Virus record (IMG/VR): IMGVR_UViG_2663762857_000014
From: a virus
Taxonomy: Duplodnaviria > Heunggongvirae > Uroviricota > Caudoviricetes
Reading direction: 5' to 3' (one strand)
Length of the DNA: 7,051 bases
A program made the translations under genes and the position numbers. The notes below the pieces were generated by a model. That model ran no database searches. It saw only the letters and a list, made by a program, of their open reading frames with translations, and had not been told where the DNA came from. How positions within the stretch are numbered: position 1 is the stretch's first letter; the number at the start of each line of letters is the position of its first letter. Positions 232 to 7,051 of the stretch are shown piece by piece.

Positions 232-3200
232 ATGGGTAAAGGTGGCGGCAAGGCGCACACACCTCGTGAGGCGAAGGATAATCTCAAATCCACGCAGATG
301 ATGAGCGTGATTGATGCGATTGGTGAGGGACCGATAGAAGGTCCGGTGAAGGGACTGCAGAGTATCCTGGTGAACAAAACCCCGCTGACGGACACGGACG
401 GTAATCCCGTGATACACGGTGTGACGGCGGTCTGGCGCGCCGGGGAGCAGGAGCAGACACCACCGGAAGGCTTTGAGTCCTCCGGAGCTGAAACTGTACT
501 GGGCGTGGAAGTGACGAAGGCAAAACCGGTGACGCGCACCATTACGTCCGCGAACATTGACCGCCTGCGGGTTACCTTCGGGGTGCAGTCACTGGTGCAG
601 ACCACGTCAAAGGGTGACCGAAACCCGACATCCGTCCGCCTGCTGATTCAGTTACAGCGTAACGGTAACTGGGTGACAGAAAAGGATGTCACCATTAACG
701 GCAAGACCACCTCGCAGTTTCTGGCGTCGGTGATTCTGGATAATCTGCCTCCCCGTCCTTTTAACATCCGGATGGTCCGGGAGACGGCGGACAGCACCAC
801 GGACCAGTTGCAGAACAGAACACTCTGGTCATCGTACACCGAAATCATCGATGTGAAACAGTGCTACCCGAACACGGCGATTGTGGGGCTGCAGGTGGAT
901 GCGGAGCAGTTCGGTGGTCAGCAGATGACGGTGAACTACCATATCCGCGGTCGCATCATCCAGGTGCCGTCAAACTATGACCCGGAAAAACGCACCTACA
1001 GCGGTATCTGGGACGGCAGTCTGAAACCGGCATACAGCAACAACCCGGCCTGGTGCCTGTGGGACATGCTGACTCACCCGCGCTACGGGATGGGAAAACG
1101 CCTGGGGGCGGCGGATGTGGACAAGTGGGCGCTGTATGCCATCGGGCAGTACTGCGACCAGACGGTCCCGGATGGTTTCGGGGGCACAGAGCCGCGGATG
1201 ACCTTTAATGCGTACCTGGCACAACAGCGTAAGGCGTGGGACGTTCTCAGTGATTTCTGCTCGGCGATGCGCTGTATGCCGGTATGGAACGGCCAGACGC
1301 TGACGTTCGTTCAGGACCGCCAGTCGGATGTGGTGTGGCCGTACACGAACAGCGATGTGGTGGTGGATGATAACGGCGTGGGGTTCCGCTACAGCTTCAG
1401 TGCCCTGAAGGACCGGCACACGGCGGTGGAGGTGAATTACACCGACCCGCAGAACGGCTGGCAGACCTCCACGGAACTGGTGGAAGACCCGGAAGCCATA
1501 CTGCGCTACGGACGCAACCTGCTGAAGATGGATGCGTTCGGCTGCACCAGTCGCGGTCAGGCCCACCGTGCCGGGCTGTGGGTGATAAAGACAGAACTGC
1601 TGGAAACGCAGACGGTGGATTTCACACTCGGGTCACAGGGGCTGCGTCACACACCGGGTGACATTATTGAAATCTGTGATAACGACTATGCCGGGACTAT
1701 GACCGGCGGACGTATCCTGTCCATTGATGCTGCCACCCGCACCCTGACGCTGGACCGTGAGGTTACCCTGCCGGAGACAGGTACATCGGCGGTGAACCTG
1801 ATTAACGGCAGCGGTAAGCCGGTGAGTGTGGACATCACCGCACACCCCGCGCCGGACCGGATACAGGTCAGTACCCTGCCTGATGGTGTGGAGACATACG
1901 GGGTGTGGGGACTCTCCCTGCCGTCACTGCGCCGTCGCCTGTTCCGCTGTGTCTCCATCCGGGAAAACACGGACGGCACCTTTGCCATCACGGCAGTGCA
2001 GCACGTACCGGAAAAAGAAGCCATTGTGGATAACGGAGCCCGCTTTGAGCCGCAGTCAGGCACCCTGAACAGCGTTATCCCACCGGCAGTGCAGCACCTG
2101 ACGGTGGAGGTGAGCGCAGCTGACGGCCAGTATCTGGCGCTGGCGAAATGGGACACGCCGCGGGTGGTGAAGGGCGTGCGCTTCAGTCTGCGCCTGACCA
2201 GTGGAAGCGGTGAGAACAGCCGCCTGCTGACCACCGCCATCACTGCCGATACGGAGCACCGTTTCAGTGGCCTGCCTCTCGGGGAATACACCCTGACGGT
2301 CAGGGCGATTAACAGCTATGGCCAGCAGGGCGAACCCGCCACCACCACGTTCCGGATTAACGCACCGGCAGCGCCTGCCGGTGTTGAACTGACGCCGGGG
2401 TATTTTCAGATAACGGCGGTACCGCGTCTTGCGGTGTATGACCCGACGGTGCAGTTTGAGTTCTGGTTTTCGGAGGCAAAAATTGCAGACGCCGCACAGG
2501 TGGAAACCTCTGCCCGTTATCTGGGGACCGGCAGTCAGTGGAGTGTCTCCGGCCCGCACATTAAGCCCGGAAAGGATTTCTGGTTTTATGTGCGCAGCGT
2601 CAACCTGGTGGGTAAATCTGCTTTTGTGGAAGCCAGTGGACGGGCGAGCAATGATGCTGCGGGCTATCTGGAACTTTTCCGGGAAAAGATAGGAAAAACG
2701 CATCTGGCAGAGGCGCTGTGGGCAGAGATTGACAACAGTCAGCTGAAGGACGAGATGGCGGAAATGCAGACCACCATCACAGAAACCCGCAATGAAATCA
2801 CACAGACGGTCAGTAAAACGCTGGAGGACCAGAGCGCCACCATACAGCAGATACAGCGCGTGCAGAAGGACACAAATGATGACCTTGCTGCACTTTACAT
2901 GCTGAAGGTACAGAAAACAAAAAATGGCATACCCTATGTTGCCGGTATTGGAGCGGGGATTGAGGATACTGATGGCCAGCCCCTGAGCAACATACTGCTG
3001 CTGGCTGACCGTATTGCGATGATTAACCCGGAGGACGGCAACACCACGCCGTTATTTGTGGCGCAGGGGAATCAGTTGTTCATGAACGATGTGTTCCTGA
3101 AGCGGCTGTTTGCGGTGAGTATCACCTCGTCCGGCAATCCCCCTACGTTCTCCCTGACGCCGGAAGGCAGGCTGACGGCCCGTAATGCGGATATCAGCGG

Positions 3201-3762
3201 ACATATCAGTGCGAACTCGGGCACGCTGAATAATGTCGTGATAGCGGAGAACTGTACCATCAAAGGTACTCTGAGAGCGGAAAATATCATTGGCGATGTG
3301 GTGAAAACGCACAATGTCAGTCTTCCTGATCTCAGGGCTGCAGGGGAGCACAGACACGCGACAGAACGAACGGTTACTGTCATTGATGATCAGTCGTTTG
3401 ACCGGAATATTGTTATCCCGCCGGTTTTTTATTCCGGTATTATCTACAAAGGAAGTGATGGTGACGGTGCGACCTCAATCTGTACGCTGACGGTGAGTGT
3501 GAATGATCGGGTGGTGTTCAGCAAAACCTCATCCATCGGTACCAGGCGTACGTCAGGGGGATACCCCGTTCAGGAAGACACCATATATCCCGGGTCATCC
3601 ACTCCGTTCAGCTATTTCATGAGGATGGCGTCAGGGGGAGGTGATGTCAGGATCAAGTTCCGGATTGAGGTCATCTATTATGGAACTGCACCGGGTTTTA
3701 TGACCACAGGGATACAGATCACAACGATGAAGGCGTCAGCTTCAGGATTTGTGGAAAGTTAA
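232..3762 (+). CDS. J: Lambda J-like central tail fibre / host specificity protein (tail tip), 1176 aa
   Basis: 3531-nt ORF with ATG at 232 and Shine-Dalgarno AGGAG at 223-227 (5-nt spacer). The N-terminus [39 protein letters not shown] and internal stretches ([39 protein letters not shown]; [30 protein letters not shown]; [29 protein letters not shown]; [18 protein letters not shown]) match what I recall of phage lambda gpJ (about 1130 aa). Antisense ORFs across it are explained by its length and GC richness. Confidence 0.95.
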
Positions 3763-4082
3763 TCCCGGACGATCGTGATTGCCGGAAGGAGACAAAAACC
3801 GCACAGTATGCGCGGGTGCCTTTGGCTGATGGCCGGAGGGAACACCTGAAAGCCTGATGTGAAAAGGCCCCGAGTCAACTTCAATGTTAACCCGAGGCCC
3901 TGATCCGTCTATCTTAAGCAAGTGGCAGGTTAGCGCCTCTCCGTAATAAGGAGCAAGTGCTGTGTCGCAAAAACCACCGTGATTTGTATCACTGTAGTGC
4001 TCATTATCTGGATCACCCACCGTTCACTGTGTGAATTCCGGTTCCGGATAGCACCTTTTTAATCCTGTAAACCACGATTTTT

Positions 4083-4131: not shown

Positions 4132-5583
4132 ATGACAGTCAGAATATCGGGCGTGCTGAAGGACGGCACCGGGAAGCCGGTACCGGGATGCACCATTGAA
4201 CTGAAAGCCCTGCGCACCACGGAGACAGTGATTGTCACCACGGTGGCGCAGGGGCAGCCGGGGGAAACCGGCAGTTACAGTTTTGATGTGGAGCCGGGGT
4301 GGTACCGGGTGACGCTGAACACGGAAGGGTACGCCCCGTCGTATGTGGGTGACATTCTGGTGAAGGCGGATTCTGAGCCGGGAACGCTGAATAAATTTCT
4401 GATGGAACAGGATGAGGCGCAGTATTACCCGAAAGCGCTTGCAGAGCTGGAAGTGGTGGCAGCGGAAATCCTGAAGCGTGCTGAAGCGTCGGCGGCGAGT
4501 GCAGAGGAAGCGAAGAAACGGGCAGAGAATGCCCGGGGACCGGCGGGCGAGAAGGGGGACACAGGTCCACAGGGTGCCACAGGGGCACAGGGACCAGCCG
4601 GGGCAACGGGGGCGGTCGGACCAAAAGGTGAGCCGGGGCCAAAGGGAGAACGGGGAGAAACAGGTCCACAGGGACCGAAGGGCGATAAAGGTGACCCGGG
4701 CGGACCGCCGGGGCCGAAAGGTGACACCGGCCCACGTGGAGAGGCCGGACCACCCGGACCACAGGGTCCGGCAGGGCAAAGCGGCCCTAAAGGGGATAAA
4801 GGTGAACCCGGCGCAACAGGTCCGGCAGGTCCCGCAGGCCCTCGGGGAGAAACCGGCCCTGCAGGTCCTGCGGGTCCCGCAGGCAGTGTCGCCAGTGTTC
4901 CGGATGCCAGCACATTACAGAAAGGTGTTGTACAGCTGAGCAGCGATACCAACAGCGATGATGAAACAAAAGCGGCAACCCCAAAGGCTGTGAAAGCGGT
5001 AATGGCAGAAGTGCAGGCAGCAAAAACGAAGGCAGAAGAGGCAGCAACCCGGGCAGCAGTCCCCGGACCGAAGGGGGACAGGGGGGAACCTGGCGCACCT
5101 GGTGCAGTGGGGCCCGCAGGCCCACGGGGACCGGCTGGTGCAGCTGGTCCCAAAGGTGATGCAGGCCCGGCCGGACCCCGGGGTCAAAAAGGTGATACAG
5201 GACCTGCAGGTCCGCAGGGACCAGCTGGCCCGGCAGGCCCACAGGGGGTTGCCGGAAGGGACGGCAATGTTTCCACCGGGAAATATGCGGTTGGTTCTTA
5301 TGTTTTTGGCGTGTCCTCTGTCTATGCTGACGGCGAAGGCTTATTTTCATCAGGGATATATGAAAACATTCAGGGTAGCTCCATTGATCTGATTTCAATA
5401 CAGACAACACAAACAGGCGCATCAACACCAAATCAAATCTGGTTTTTGAAACTGGAGGAGGACATTCCGGGGGTGTGGCGGGCATTTAAACCCGCCGCAT
5501 ATATTGATCTGATGCCAGAAGGAATGCAAGGAGGAAAGAACTCGATGTTTAACTTTATTACTCTTTTCCAGCGGATAGCGTAA
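4132..5583 (+). CDS. stf: Side tail fibre protein (lambda Stf-like N-terminus) with collagen-like Gly-X-Y shaft, 483 aa
   Basis: ATG at 4132 with GGGGA 7-8 nt upstream. The N-terminus [26 protein letters not shown] closely resembles the lambda Stf N-terminus as I recall it ([26 protein letters not shown]). The motif [28 protein letters not shown] (aa 264-291) matches the conserved tail-fibre motif KGIVQLSSATNS...AATPKAVK. Two long G-X-Y runs occupy aa 136-251 and 311-377. A non-repetitive C-terminal domain of about 105 aa follows. Confidence 0.9.
4537..4884 (+). repeat. Collagen-like Gly-X-Y coding repeat block 1 within stf (about 38 triplets, one register break at [12 protein letters not shown])
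   Basis: Translation [116 protein letters not shown]. The DNA is a GC-rich 9-bp-periodic repeat, which explains the long stop-free antisense and out-of-frame ORFs in the track. Confidence 0.9.
5065..5262 (+). repeat. Collagen-like Gly-X-Y coding repeat block 2 within stf (about 22 triplets)
   Basis: Translation [68 protein letters not shown], immediately after the conserved KGVVQLSS...TPKAVK motif and an Ala/Lys-rich linker. Confidence 0.9.
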
Positions 5584-5594
5584 CGAGGTACGGC

Positions 5595-6188
5595 ATGATA
5601 ATAGCGATCAGTGCGGTTAAGGATCCGGTATATACCAGGCAGGGATGTATCAACTGTCTGGTGAAACTCACCGGAGTTGACGAGGAGGAGACGGACTGGC
5701 TTCCGTTTACGGCGACACCAACGGACGAAGCCCCTCATGGAAAAGAACTCTGGCAGGCACTGAACTCAGGTCAATATGGTCAAATCGCGCCGTATACTCA
5801 ACCGGAAGATGCGGTGGAAAAAGCCAGACAACAGAAAATTAATGAGATCAACGCCTGGCGTAATTCGATGGAAGCGGCGAACTACACGTTTGAGCACAAT
5901 GGGCGTAAATGGGACTACGGGAAGTCAACGCAGACGCGTCTTGAGCCGTCGGTGGCGGCAGCGAAAGCGGGGAAACTGCCGGAGGCGTTTTTCTGGACGG
6001 ATGCGGACAATAATGACGTACCGATGGACGCTGAAACACTGATTGCTCTGAGTGCTGCTGCAGAGCAGGCGATGTTTACCAAAGGTCTGGAAATTCATGT
6101 CAGACAGCGCACGATGAAAAAAGAGATTGAAGCGCTGGATGATGCGGAAGCTATACTGGCGTATAAGGTCGGCATGGCTGACAGGTGA
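5595..6188 (+). CDS. Putative tail fibre assembly protein / chaperone (Tfa-like by position), 197 aa
   Basis: ATG at 5595 with GAGG at 5586-5589 (5-nt spacer), 11 nt after the stf stop. Its size and position directly downstream of the side tail fibre gene match lambda tfa and other tail fibre assembly chaperones. I cannot confirm family membership by eye, so the function rests on synteny. Confidence 0.75.
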   Translation: MIIAISAVKDPVYTRQGCINCLVKLTGVDEEETDWLPFTATPTDEAPHGKELWQALNSGQYGQIAPYTQPEDAVEKARQQKINEINAWRNSMEAANYTFEHNGRKWDYGKSTQTRLEPSVAAAKAGKLPEAFFWTDADNNDVPMDAETLIALSAAAEQAMFTKGLEIHVRQRTMKKEIEALDDAEAILAYKVGMADR

Positions 6189-6213
6189 AAAAAAGAGGGG
6201 CGCTCCAGCCCCT
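6188..6213 (-). terminator. Intrinsic terminator-like hairpin abutting the tfa stop; canonical for leftward (minus-strand) transcription, possibly a weak bidirectional terminator
   Basis: Plus strand reads A7 (6188-6194), g, AGGGGC (6196-6201), 6-nt loop, GCCCCT (6208-6213). On the minus strand this is a 6-bp GC-rich stem followed by cTTTTTTT. On the plus strand the hairpin is followed by ttgctac, a poor U-tract. Confidence 0.5.
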
Positions 6214-6415
6214 TGCTACAAAGCTATGGCTAAATAAAGAATACTCAGGTCGAGGAAATAATCTGGCAATGATAATTAAAGGAGATGCAACGGCCTCCTT
6301 CACCCCTGTCAAAGATAAAAAACTGGGGAGTGCGTGCTCACCGAGAGCATGATACTTGTGGTTGATAGTTATTTTTATCCGGCGACAAAGATATTGAGAT
6401 GAGGGCGCGGATGCA

Positions 6416-6431
6416 ATACAGAATTTTCGTA
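6416..6431. repeat. Copy 1 of an exact 16-bp direct repeat ATACAGAATTTTCGTA, lying inside the 8-bp-arm inverted repeat ATGCAATA / TATTGCAT (6411-6437)
   Basis: Read directly; the second copy is at 6593-6608. Flanks differ immediately outside the 16 bp. Confidence 0.85.
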
Positions 6432-6484
6432 TTGCATGGTAACTGCTGATTCCTGAAACTGAAAGTCGTCATGAAACTGTAAGC

Positions 6485-6512
6485 GAAAAAACGGGGAGAC
6501 GGCACGCTCCCC
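6485..6512 (-). terminator. Intrinsic terminator oriented for minus-strand transcription
   Basis: Plus strand reads A6 (6486-6491), c, GGGGAG (6493-6498), 8-nt loop acggcacg, CTCCCC (6507-6512). The minus-strand transcript would be GGGGAG-loop-CUCCCC-G-UUUUUU. No U-tract follows the hairpin on the plus strand. Confidence 0.5.
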
Positions 6513-6592
6513 AAGGTCATACATGAGATAGTGGTGTTTTTATAGTCGAAAGAATAATTGCATAAAAAGAGTGTAAATTAAACATTCAGGGG

Positions 6593-6608
6593 ATACAGAA
6601 TTTTCGTA
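6593..6608. repeat. Copy 2 of the exact 16-bp direct repeat ATACAGAATTTTCGTA
   Basis: Identical to 6416-6431, 177 bp downstream. A weakly similar attgc..ctgaaa stretch follows both copies. Confidence 0.85.
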
Positions 6609-6644
6609 GGCTGAGGGATTGCTGAAAATAATTTAGTGCGTCCT

Positions 6645-6666
6645 TCAATGGTCATTCAATGGTCAT
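6645..6666. repeat. Perfect tandem duplication of an 11-bp unit (TCAATGGTCAT x2)
   Basis: Read directly: tcaatggtcat at 6645-6655 and again at 6656-6666. An 8-bp-arm inverted repeat ATTGTGCT / AGCACAAT (6670-6699, 14-nt spacer) follows. Confidence 0.85.
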
Positions 6667-6854
6667 CAGATTGTGCTGATGTAAACAGTTAAGCACAATT
6701 TGATTATTTGACTTTCTTCTTTTTGTGACTAACTTCACAATTAAAGATGTAACCGTATACAAATTGTTGATGAATAAAGAGACAGCATAAGTGGCAGGCC
6801 AGTCGTAATGCGGATATCCCTTCGCGAACGTGATATCACCGACGTTATAGTAAG

Positions 6855-6892
6855 GAAATTCCGAAAAACTTCATATTAAAATTCGGAATTTC
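6855..6892. promoter_or_regulatory. Perfect 11-bp inverted repeat GAAATTCCGAA-N16-TTCGGAATTTC directly upstream of an RBS; candidate operator or 5'-UTR hairpin
   Basis: Arms 6855-6865 and 6882-6892 are exact reverse complements. AGGAG at 6896-6900 and ATG at 6908 follow. A perfect 10-bp palindrome GTGATATCAC lies at 6830-6839, and a possible -10 TATAGT at 6846-6851. Confidence 0.4.
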
Positions 6893-6907
6893 TTCAGGAG
6901 TAAGCTC

Positions 6908-6985
6908 ATGAGAGCGGCGAGACATCAGATTTTCTTTATATATCCGATGTTGAGTTGTTTTATTTGTATACAGATAATTTTATAG
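6908..6985 (+). CDS. Hypothetical small ORF, 25 aa, hydrophobic (MRAARHQIFFIYPMLSCFICIQIIL); possible small membrane peptide or leader peptide
   Basis: ATG at 6908 preceded by AGGAG at 6896-6900 (7-nt spacer); TAG stop at 6983-6985. Ends 10 nt before the next ATG. The call rests on the strong RBS alone; the ORF is too short for composition statistics. Confidence 0.2.
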   Translation: MRAARHQIFFIYPMLSCFICIQIIL

Positions 6986-6995
6986 GGTATACCAC

Positions 6996-7051
6996 ATGAG
7001 CAAGAAATTTGCAAATACTATTCTTTCTTCTGCTGTTGCCGGATTGATGTT
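6996..7051 (+). CDS. Possible 5' end of a gene running off the window; the N-terminus MSKKFANTILSSAVAGLM looks like a signal peptide (secreted, fimbrial or outer-membrane protein?)
   Basis: ATG at 6996 followed by two lysines and a hydrophobic stretch, the typical n-region and h-region of a Sec signal peptide. No classic SD directly upstream, so it may be translationally coupled to the small ORF. Only 18 codons are visible. Confidence 0.3.
   Translation, partial: MSKKFANTILSSAVAGLM

Follow-up and report, generated by a model that had tools for sequence, protein, structure and literature searches.

A structured leader before an Eib-family adhesin gene downstream of a lambdoid tail module probably hides the gene's start site, and the 25-codon frame within it is most likely no gene

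Lambdoid phages carry morons (lom, bor and others), genes that sit in the late region as insertions and bring along expression signals of their own (Hendrix and colleagues). Start sites that are masked and then opened by translating an upstream frame are known from MS2 coat-replicase and from uof-fur. The described locus with which ours is best compared is the eibA locus of prophage P-EibA, which reportedly goes back to Sandt and Hill in 2000 and in which J, a tail fibre gene, orf-191 (DUF4376), a spacer, eib, orf-156 and orf-60 follow one another (AF151091). The order J, (lom), fibre, DUF4376, eib, orf-156 and orf-60 is deposited for P-EibA, C, D and E and recurs in RefSeq prophages. In AF151091, in AF151674-6 and in nearly all RefSeq loci compared, eib comes directly after the DUF4376 gene, the exceptions being one locus without an adjacent DUF4376 gene (L012) and one with an IS21 element between the two (L008). 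The cassette sits in dozens of E. coli prophages, lambdoid and other. Eib, Cla and Yal are E. coli lineages of YadA-like adhesins (PMC13534694), and Eib, Cla and their relatives confer serum resistance and chain-like adherence on LEE-negative STEC. Eib-type adhesins are strongly regulated, being high in static, stationary-phase cultures at 37 °C, and they depend on ibrAB. In the literature searched, which did not include the founding eib papers, we found neither a mechanism for the regulation by static growth or ibrAB nor a description of a folded eib leader.

The stretch of DNA that we analysed (7,051 nt; hereafter the window) follows P-EibA in gene order. A J-like protein gene (232-3762) and a collagen-like fibre gene (4132-5583), both belonging to a lambdoid tail module, are followed on the plus strand by a tail fibre assembly-like gene of the DUF4376 type (5595-6188; Pfam PF14301, E = 2.1e-21), which is the counterpart of orf-191A in P-EibA and the final phage structural gene ahead of the cargo cassette. 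No lom gene was found between J and fibre in the window, whereas one is present in P-EibA. After a spacer of 807 nt, an ATG at 6996 on the plus strand opens an ORF that reads MSKKFANTILSSAVAGLM and stays open to the window end (18 codons, 6996-7051), and an SD-like AGGG (6984-6987, plus strand) lies 8 nt before this ATG. Upstream of it on the same strand is a tiny ORF of 25 codons (6908-6985; ATG at 6908, stop TAG at 6983-6985; peptide MRAARHQIFFIYPMLSCFICIQIIL), which is preceded by an SD-like AGGAG (6896-6900, plus strand) with a spacer of 7 nt. A gap of 10 nt (6986-6995) separates the two frames, and the AGGG of the second overlaps the TAG of the first. Both ORFs and the canonical RBS, as given in the initial annotation of this DNA, can be read directly from the sequence.

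On sequence comparison, the ORF at 6996 is the start of a gene of the Eib family, whose E. coli members encode immunoglobulin-binding, YadA-like trimeric autotransporter adhesins. Of 5426 complete E. coli genomes, 27 contain matches to positions 6200-7051 (90-99.6% identity, several copies per genome), and the CDS over them is always named 'YadA C-terminal domain-containing protein'. The same segment matches eight phage records, including that of P-EibA (AF151091), in which the CDS is annotated as eibA, 'immunoglobulin-binding protein EibA'. The ATG at 6996 coincides with the annotated start of a YadA-family/Eib CDS in every related RefSeq or GenBank record compared. A stop shortly after the window end, which had been named as the observation that would speak against a cargo gene, is not seen in the nearest relatives (leaders 99.3-99.6% identical), where the ORF runs for 360-426 codons. 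The two homologues that were tested (371 and 360 aa) end in a YadA anchor (PF03895; E = 4e-16 and 5e-16), the leaders of these loci being 99.6% and 97.4% identical to that of the window, and the 371-aa protein (locus L001) also matches the solved structures of the YadA anchor (2lme) and of EibD (2xzr). As in other YadA-like adhesins (PF03895), there is an N-terminal signal peptide, the homologues carry a C-terminal YadA anchor, and several prophage copies occur per genome.

The visible residues MSKKFANTILSSAVAGLM have a basic n-region (KK) leading into a hydrophobic core, and the 18 codons are the putative n- and h-regions of a Sec signal peptide. Sixteen of the 18 residues are identical to those of WP_001368540.1, which continues ...FVSFSSLSA/KPT. 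SignalP-predicted signal peptides were removed from EibG-like proteins before their analysis (PMC13534694). The proposal that a moron, a cargo gene whose product is secreted or goes to the outer membrane and has a signal-peptide-like start, lies downstream of the tail-fibre module is therefore borne out, since the start at 6996 belongs to an eib-family adhesin gene and the visible codons are the beginning of its signal peptide. It is the first gene of an eib/orf-156/orf-60 cargo cassette after the tail-fibre assembly gene. The idea was right and also already known: eib genes at such a position have been known since 2000, and the gene belongs to a known family, Eib/YadA-like, that was surveyed again in 2026, at its usual place in a prophage. 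Like lambdoid morons, it is a host-fitness gene after tail-fibre genes with a leader of its own, and the annotation of P-EibA places a terminator stem-loop behind the gene; unlike them, it has an unusually long and structured leader.

The window shares its leader class with P-EibA (93.8% identity over 82% of 6200-7051), and the tiny ORF is present there with two residues changed. The proteins differ more: the window ORF begins MSKKFANT, whereas EibA begins MSKKFTKAVLSAAMAG, and the proteins behind leaders 99.3-99.6% identical are shorter YadA-anchor proteins (360-371 aa) that resemble EibA in no more than their last 166 residues (59% identity). Among complete genomes, the best match has two mismatches in 272 nt; two bases differ from it within the first eight codons (FTKT there, FANT in the window), and the first 38 nt of the ORF have no exact match in viral or metagenome contigs. 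With only 18 codons in the window, the candidate lineages are Eib proper, Cla and Yal. Eib proper binds IgG Fc or IgA non-immunely through conserved stalk residues. Since the related Cla proteins do not bind IgG (PMC13534694), such binding should not be assumed for the product of the window gene, whose passenger domain would lie beyond the window end.

The approximately 150 nt before eib are probably a structured 5' leader of the gene, the predicted fold of 6845-7010 having an energy of -43.6 kcal/mol (z = -5.0). A search of Rfam with the leader gave nothing at E up to 10. For comparison, eib-like loci were collected from E. coli genomes, phage records and IMG/VR and the 300 nt before each start were extracted; these leaders fall into at least seven sequence classes (A-G), with the window and eibA in class A, and eibC, eibD and eibE of ECOR-9 in class C. 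The useful loci came from a viral scan and from an anchor-based scan. A scan of genome contigs with the palindrome (see below) and start motif returned 117 loci, none encoding an Eib anchor, and these were set aside as chance AT-rich matches. MAFFT with RNAalifold on 16 leaders misaligned the stems and missed the hairpin described next, and we used arm-swap permutations instead, in which 5' and 3' halves are swapped between the seven leader classes and predicted energies are compared in an alignment-free way.

Two hairpins are predicted in the window. The first, HP1 (6853-6894, plus strand), has a 13-bp stem (AGGAAAUUCCGAA / UUCGGAAUUUCUU) and a 16-nt AU-rich loop, is part of the minimum-free-energy fold of 6845-7010 and corresponds to the stem_loop annotated at 3777-3814 in AF151091. 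As a conserved RNA structure it was rejected, 2221 of 5040 arm-swap permutations being as good as the native pairing; since there is no covariation between leader classes, HP1 is strong in class A only. The second, HP2 (6911-6961, plus strand), lies under the tiny ORF and has an apical loop, UUUCUUUAUAU in the window, whose sequence is conserved across classes (CAGAUUUUCUUUAU). In the window its predicted energy is -16.7 kcal/mol (z = -2.4), and a hairpin is found at this place in all seven classes (z from -1.0 to -8.6) with stem sequences that differ between them: CCGAAAUACAUCAGA / UCUGAUGUAUUUCGG in class E, GCAACG..GUGUCAG / CUGACAC.CGUUGC in class F, and AGCCGUAA / UUACGGCU in eibC versus AGCCGUAAU / GUUGCGGCU in eibD. 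Only two of the 5040 permutations fold as well as the native arms. Class A is the least convincing member of the set, its HP2 being degenerate and its native arms no better than chimeric ones.

The 3' side of HP2 enters a U-rich tract that is joined to a palindrome (6962-6975, plus strand; ATTTGTATACAGAT in the window, TTTGTATACAAA in most classes), and nowhere is the leader alignment better conserved than in these columns. The palindrome motif is present in classes A-C and E-G, and the U-rich tract follows the stem in six of the seven classes. This arrangement raises the possibility that HP2 and its tail are mainly an intrinsic terminator or attenuator against read-through from the phage late operon or from a leader promoter, the tiny ORF being either irrelevant or an attenuator leader. 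The hairpin is followed directly by the U-rich sequence (GGGUUGCUUUUUUU in class B, GGUUGCUUGUUUUU in G, UUUCGGUUUGUUU in E), its stem covaries, and the attenuators trpL, hisL and pheL likewise have a short ORF with its own SD ahead of a gene, overlapping a hairpin with U residues behind it. However, simple terminators do not usually have loops like these, of 11-15 nt and conserved in sequence; in class D the U-tract is missing, the outer stem of HP2 in the window is weak and rich in G-U pairs, and a scan for consensus terminators found nothing on the plus strand at HP2. Nor is there a conserved promoter between the hairpin and the ATG: the candidate TTGAGT-17-GATAAT is unconserved and within chance (2 found vs 2.9 expected). 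Unlike in the attenuators, no alternative antiterminator pairing was found in the eib leader, and its tiny ORF is unconserved among homologous leaders, lacks a run of regulatory codons and covers the whole hairpin instead of ending before it. We regard termination as the main role of HP2 as possible but somewhat unlikely. A subsidiary role is another matter, since HP2 and the U-rich tail may also terminate or attenuate transcription in a leader that masks the start site, the two being compatible.

It is the masking of the start site to which the remaining pairings of the leader point. In the minimum-free-energy and centroid folds of the window, GCUCAUG (6904-6910, plus strand), which contains the AUG of the tiny ORF, pairs with CAUGAGC (6995-7001, plus strand), which covers the start codon of eib, forming helix P0 with a predicted duplex energy of -11.7 kcal/mol. 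The corresponding 5' motif of the other classes is complementary to their own RBS region: UCCUCAUGGGU pairs with AUUCAUGAGGA in class E, UACCCUUAUGAAA with UUUCAUAGGGUA in F, AUAUCCUG with CAGGAUAU in C, and AAUCCUG with CAGGAU in B, while in classes A and G (G)CUCAUG pairs with CAUGAG(C), over the AUG itself. The 5' motifs match their own RBS region better than those of other classes, with only five of 5040 permutations being as good. On predicted energies over seven related leader classes, we count the covariation both of HP2 and of the anti-RBS/RBS pairing as shown.

In a comparison with shuffled 5' strands, the pairing is individually significant for classes C, F, E and B but not for A, D and G (p ~0.13); the 7-bp helix of the window taken alone is within chance, being equalled in 13% of shuffles. 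Every leader class has an AGGG, AGGA or GAGGA between -13 and -8, and the predicted unpaired probability is at most 0.12 for the SD (five classes) or for the AUG (A and G). RBS accessibility is below the median for shuffled upstream sequence in seven of seven classes. For the window, the occlusion of the RBS is matched by 6% of shuffles, and the eib AUG has a predicted unpaired probability of 0.01-0.02 from 20 to 42 °C. Class A stands somewhat apart here too: its masking helix is only 7 bp long and pairs with the AUG instead of the SD, and it carries an extra segment with the AGGAG between HP1 and the helix.

We consider it likely that the window ends in the start of an eib gene whose structured leader hides the start site, and that the tiny ORF is a frame left open by chance of which no peptide is needed. 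For the covarying 5' strand to be part of the RNA, the transcript would have to start upstream of 6904. GCUCAUG at 6904-6910 would then pair with CAUGAGC at 6995-7001 and cover the eib start codon, and with the ribosome-binding site paired, translation would be low by default until some factor opened the leader. The body of the tiny ORF would simply span HP2, the U-rich tract and the palindrome, with its stop overlapping the eib SD. The conserved loop and the palindrome suggest a trans-acting partner. The leader resembles the RBS-masking leaders ROSE, fourU and rpoS in that an upstream strand pairs with the eib SD or AUG, and does so with covariation between classes; it differs from them in having no sequence or Rfam relationship and in that no melting is predicted from 20 to 42 °C. 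A simple RNA thermometer was considered and rejected in silico, the predicted accessibility barely changing from 20 to 42 °C; since the pairing is not predicted to melt over this range, such a device is unlikely, although EibG levels are higher at 37 °C (PMC4352079). The comparison thus exposes a conserved folded leader that is predicted to mask an Eib-type start site and that offers a testable place to look for regulation. It is a reasonable lead for adhesin regulation, and one that would not surprise a specialist.

The tiny ORF and its SD-ATG pair are expected by chance. The arrangement AGGAG-N5-9-ATG occurs twice in the window, the other copy being the real start of J, where shuffling leads one to expect 1.14, and two or more copies turn up in 64 of 200 shuffles. 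The stretch of approximately 860 nt from 6189 to 7051 contains 17 ORFs of at least 20 aa, and another frame through the 88 nt of the tiny ORF is stop-free throughout. Across the leader classes, the frame from the conserved ATG has 25 codons in A and F, 22 in E and 17 in D; class B has no ATG, class C has ATA or AAA, or else ATG-AAG-CCG-TAA (a 3-codon frame), and class G has ATG-TAA. A long frame is thus kept in four of the seven classes and absent from three (B, C and G). Where it is long it stops at differing places (-11, -11, -19 and -33 in A, F, E and D), and the peptides (MRAARHQIFFIY..., MKGNEVSVFLMY..., MGAEIHQIFFIH... and MPAKTNQIFFMN...) are unrelated except for stretches forced by conserved nucleotides. 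That four of the five classes keeping the ATG have frames of 17-25 codons is mildly above a guess at chance, at a rough p of ~0.03-0.09 for classes that are not independent.

Within class A, four changes alter the product (R2I, P13L, S16N and a loss of the stop) vs two that are synonymous. P13L (CCG to CTG) converts an A-C mismatch in HP2 into an A-U pair, and the same toggle is seen in class E. The AGGAG is a class-specific variant that aligns with a conserved GGAAT/GGAGT of the other classes, and it is AAGAG in class-A locus L004, whose eib gene is intact. In the records compared, no annotator (PGAP, the P-EibA authors or the PhiR phage records) called the tiny ORF. Its peptides have no PHROG match and no exact counterpart among approximately 15 billion predicted proteins, the latter being a weak result given that gene callers seldom report ORFs this short. 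In ECOR-9, all four proteins EibA, C, D and E are expressed and show 'very similar regulation' (PMC5450701); since eibC, eibD and eibE are without the frame and yet are expressed and regulated like eibA, the upstream frame is unnecessary for eib expression or its known regulation.

Judged from these comparisons, the 25-codon ORF is most likely no gene, but a frame that happens to stay open across a structured leader. It fails the tests of a leader peptide, namely conservation of the frame among homologous leaders and selection on the product, and the conserved CATG is explained by base pairing. Of the initial suggestion of a leader peptide plus a secreted protein, the secreted protein therefore stands, whereas the leader peptide has to be given up: the frame is lost in three of seven classes, including that of the expressed eibC, eibD and eibE, the peptide is unconserved, and the RBS is class-specific. 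More generally, a good SD is not enough to annotate a small ORF in front of a prophage cargo gene as a leader peptide; comparative support is needed, and here the comparison argues against it.

The peptide might have a function of its own, as a small hydrophobic membrane peptide of, for example, the type I toxin kind, for it has 25 aa, is largely hydrophobic, and Hok/Gef genes occur in the same prophages. But its hydrophobic character comes from the U-rich loop, the tail and the palindrome, the peptides of other classes are unrelated and that of class F (MKGNEVSVFLMYSDTRCSVCIQIIS) is not membrane-like, and neither the database searches nor the three classes that have lost the frame give any sign of such a product. 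The type I toxin idea was rejected, a conserved hydrophobic peptide not being found across the classes, and we hold any function of this sort to be highly improbable.

A more elaborate role would be that of a translated, regulatory upstream ORF in class A. A ribosome on the tiny ORF would melt P0 and HP2 and stop at the UAG (6983-6985) on the eib SD, and eib would be translated either by unmasking or by re-initiation 10 nt downstream. The geometry is suggestive, since the eib AUG is masked by the very strand in which the tiny ORF starts, and the tiny ORF stops 10 nt short of that AUG. Some active opener would be needed, given that the predicted pairing of the eib RBS persists from 20 to 42 °C. 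The SD of the tiny ORF is strong, ideally spaced and predicted to be single-stranded; class A having the best SD among the classes, exposed in the predicted fold, the tiny ORF may have gained a role there, and in four classes the same ATG opens a frame of 17-25 codons. Weighing against this, the frame is absent from classes B, C and G, although eibC, eibD and eibE are regulated like eibA, the SD is degraded to AAGAG in L004, and with stops at differing positions (-11, -19, -33) no coupling geometry is conserved. Nothing points to purifying selection, an SD-ATG pair of this kind is to be expected by chance, and the ATG is accounted for by base pairing. The leader also differs from MS2 coat-replicase and uof-fur in that the upstream frame exists in only some classes. 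We consider translation of the tiny ORF as the regulatory step to be quite unlikely, and the wider proposal, that the eib leader is an undescribed cis-regulatory RNA of prophage adhesin genes which is switched on in the eibA-type class by translating the 25-codon ORF, to be similarly doubtful. If it were true, the leader would act as a translational gate, and this gate might lie behind the control of Eib by static growth and IbrAB.

The leader also carries candidate DNA-level signals. A conserved DNA motif on the plus strand (6846-6864) consists of a -10-like hexamer, TATAGT (6846-6851), running into TAAGGAAATTCCGA (6851-6864), and TAnnnT followed by AAGAnnnnTCC is found at the same place in all leader classes. 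We infer that this could be a promoter or a regulator site. The conserved sequence in the HP1 region (TAnnnT, AAGAnnnnTCC) is more likely a DNA-level signal than a trace of RNA structure. Candidate -10 hexamers lie at 6846-6851 and 6901-6906. The window has no exact match anywhere to the RcsB-box pattern TN(G/A)GAN4TC(T/C)NA (PMC7913699), its copy having one mismatch; the pattern is exact in classes C, E and F. In the related eibG, expression was obtained from a plasmid with 168 bp of upstream sequence (PMC13534694).

Among the otherwise diverged leaders found upstream of eib, the prophage cargo gene for a YadA-like trimeric autotransporter adhesin, the most highly conserved element is a perfect 12-nt palindrome, TTTGTATACAAA (window form ATTTGTATACAGAT, 6962-6975). 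It sits 3' of the leader hairpin and 5' of the eib Shine-Dalgarno sequence, and was found in every leader class except D and H (for example in the eib-like loci L009, L007, L011 and L179). No known site was matched by the palindrome, which has the look of an operator bound by a protein dimer.

A second conserved element, TAAGAnnnnTCC(T/C)nA, lies further upstream, at 6851-6864 in the window and at the homologous position of about -150 in loci L009, L188, L007 and L195. Compared with the pattern of the RcsB box, TN(G/A)GAN4TC(T/C)NA (PMC7913699), the element is an exact match in the leaders of classes C, E and F. The copies of class A (window: TAAGGAAATTCCGA), class B and class D each depart from the pattern at a single position, and the motif of the class G leader falls outside it. 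If the element is a functional RcsB box, the Rcs envelope-stress system would fit a regulation of Eib linked to the surface or to static growth.

Leaders unrelated to those of eib precede two YadA-anchor genes that are more distant, in L202 (IMGVR_UViG_2606217112_000002, 2428-2609) and L181 (2599-2780). Here too the predicted fold pairs the Shine-Dalgarno region with an upstream strand, each fold being a prediction from a single sequence, and this hints that masking of the start site may be common among prophage trimeric autotransporter genes.

The stretch that runs from the 3' half of the DUF4376 fibre assembly gene through the eib leader and its cassette is common to lambdoid prophages and to prophages whose major capsid protein is of the N4-gp56 type (L001, NZ_CP027340, 8797-9912; L004; L005), and a recombination boundary lies inside the fibre assembly gene at query position 417. 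Since the same cassette is found in both types of prophage, the eib module is one that moves among unrelated phage backbones. Two small genes, orf-156 and orf-60, are always located 3' of eib (L204, 13432-14083; L002, 5187-5839), and because this linkage is constant it is suggested that they are functional partners of eib. Neither has a Pfam domain, and the PHROG families that they fall into, phrog_6585 (E = 2.7e-96) and phrog_9340 (E = 5e-24), have no assigned function.

The tail fibre gene of the window (4132-5583) has long collagen-like Gly-X-Y tracts, like the collagen-like prophage proteins described in pathogenic E. coli (PMC3368898). In the eibA-carrying prophage P-EibA and several related prophages lom is found between J and the fibre gene, whereas the window lacks it.

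In the spacer that separates the fibre assembly gene from eib, the minus strand of 6190-6740 carries hairpins followed by T-runs that resemble terminators. There are four of them, at 6196-6213, at 6277-6302 and, as an overlapping pair, at 6492-6513, compared with 0.4 expected by chance; the same strand has a promoter-like site at 6731-6703. ORFs of the putative minus-strand transcript had no PHROG match; the annotation of phage PhiR5_2 places two 49-aa minus-strand ORFs in the equivalent region. A small convergent transcript may be encoded here.
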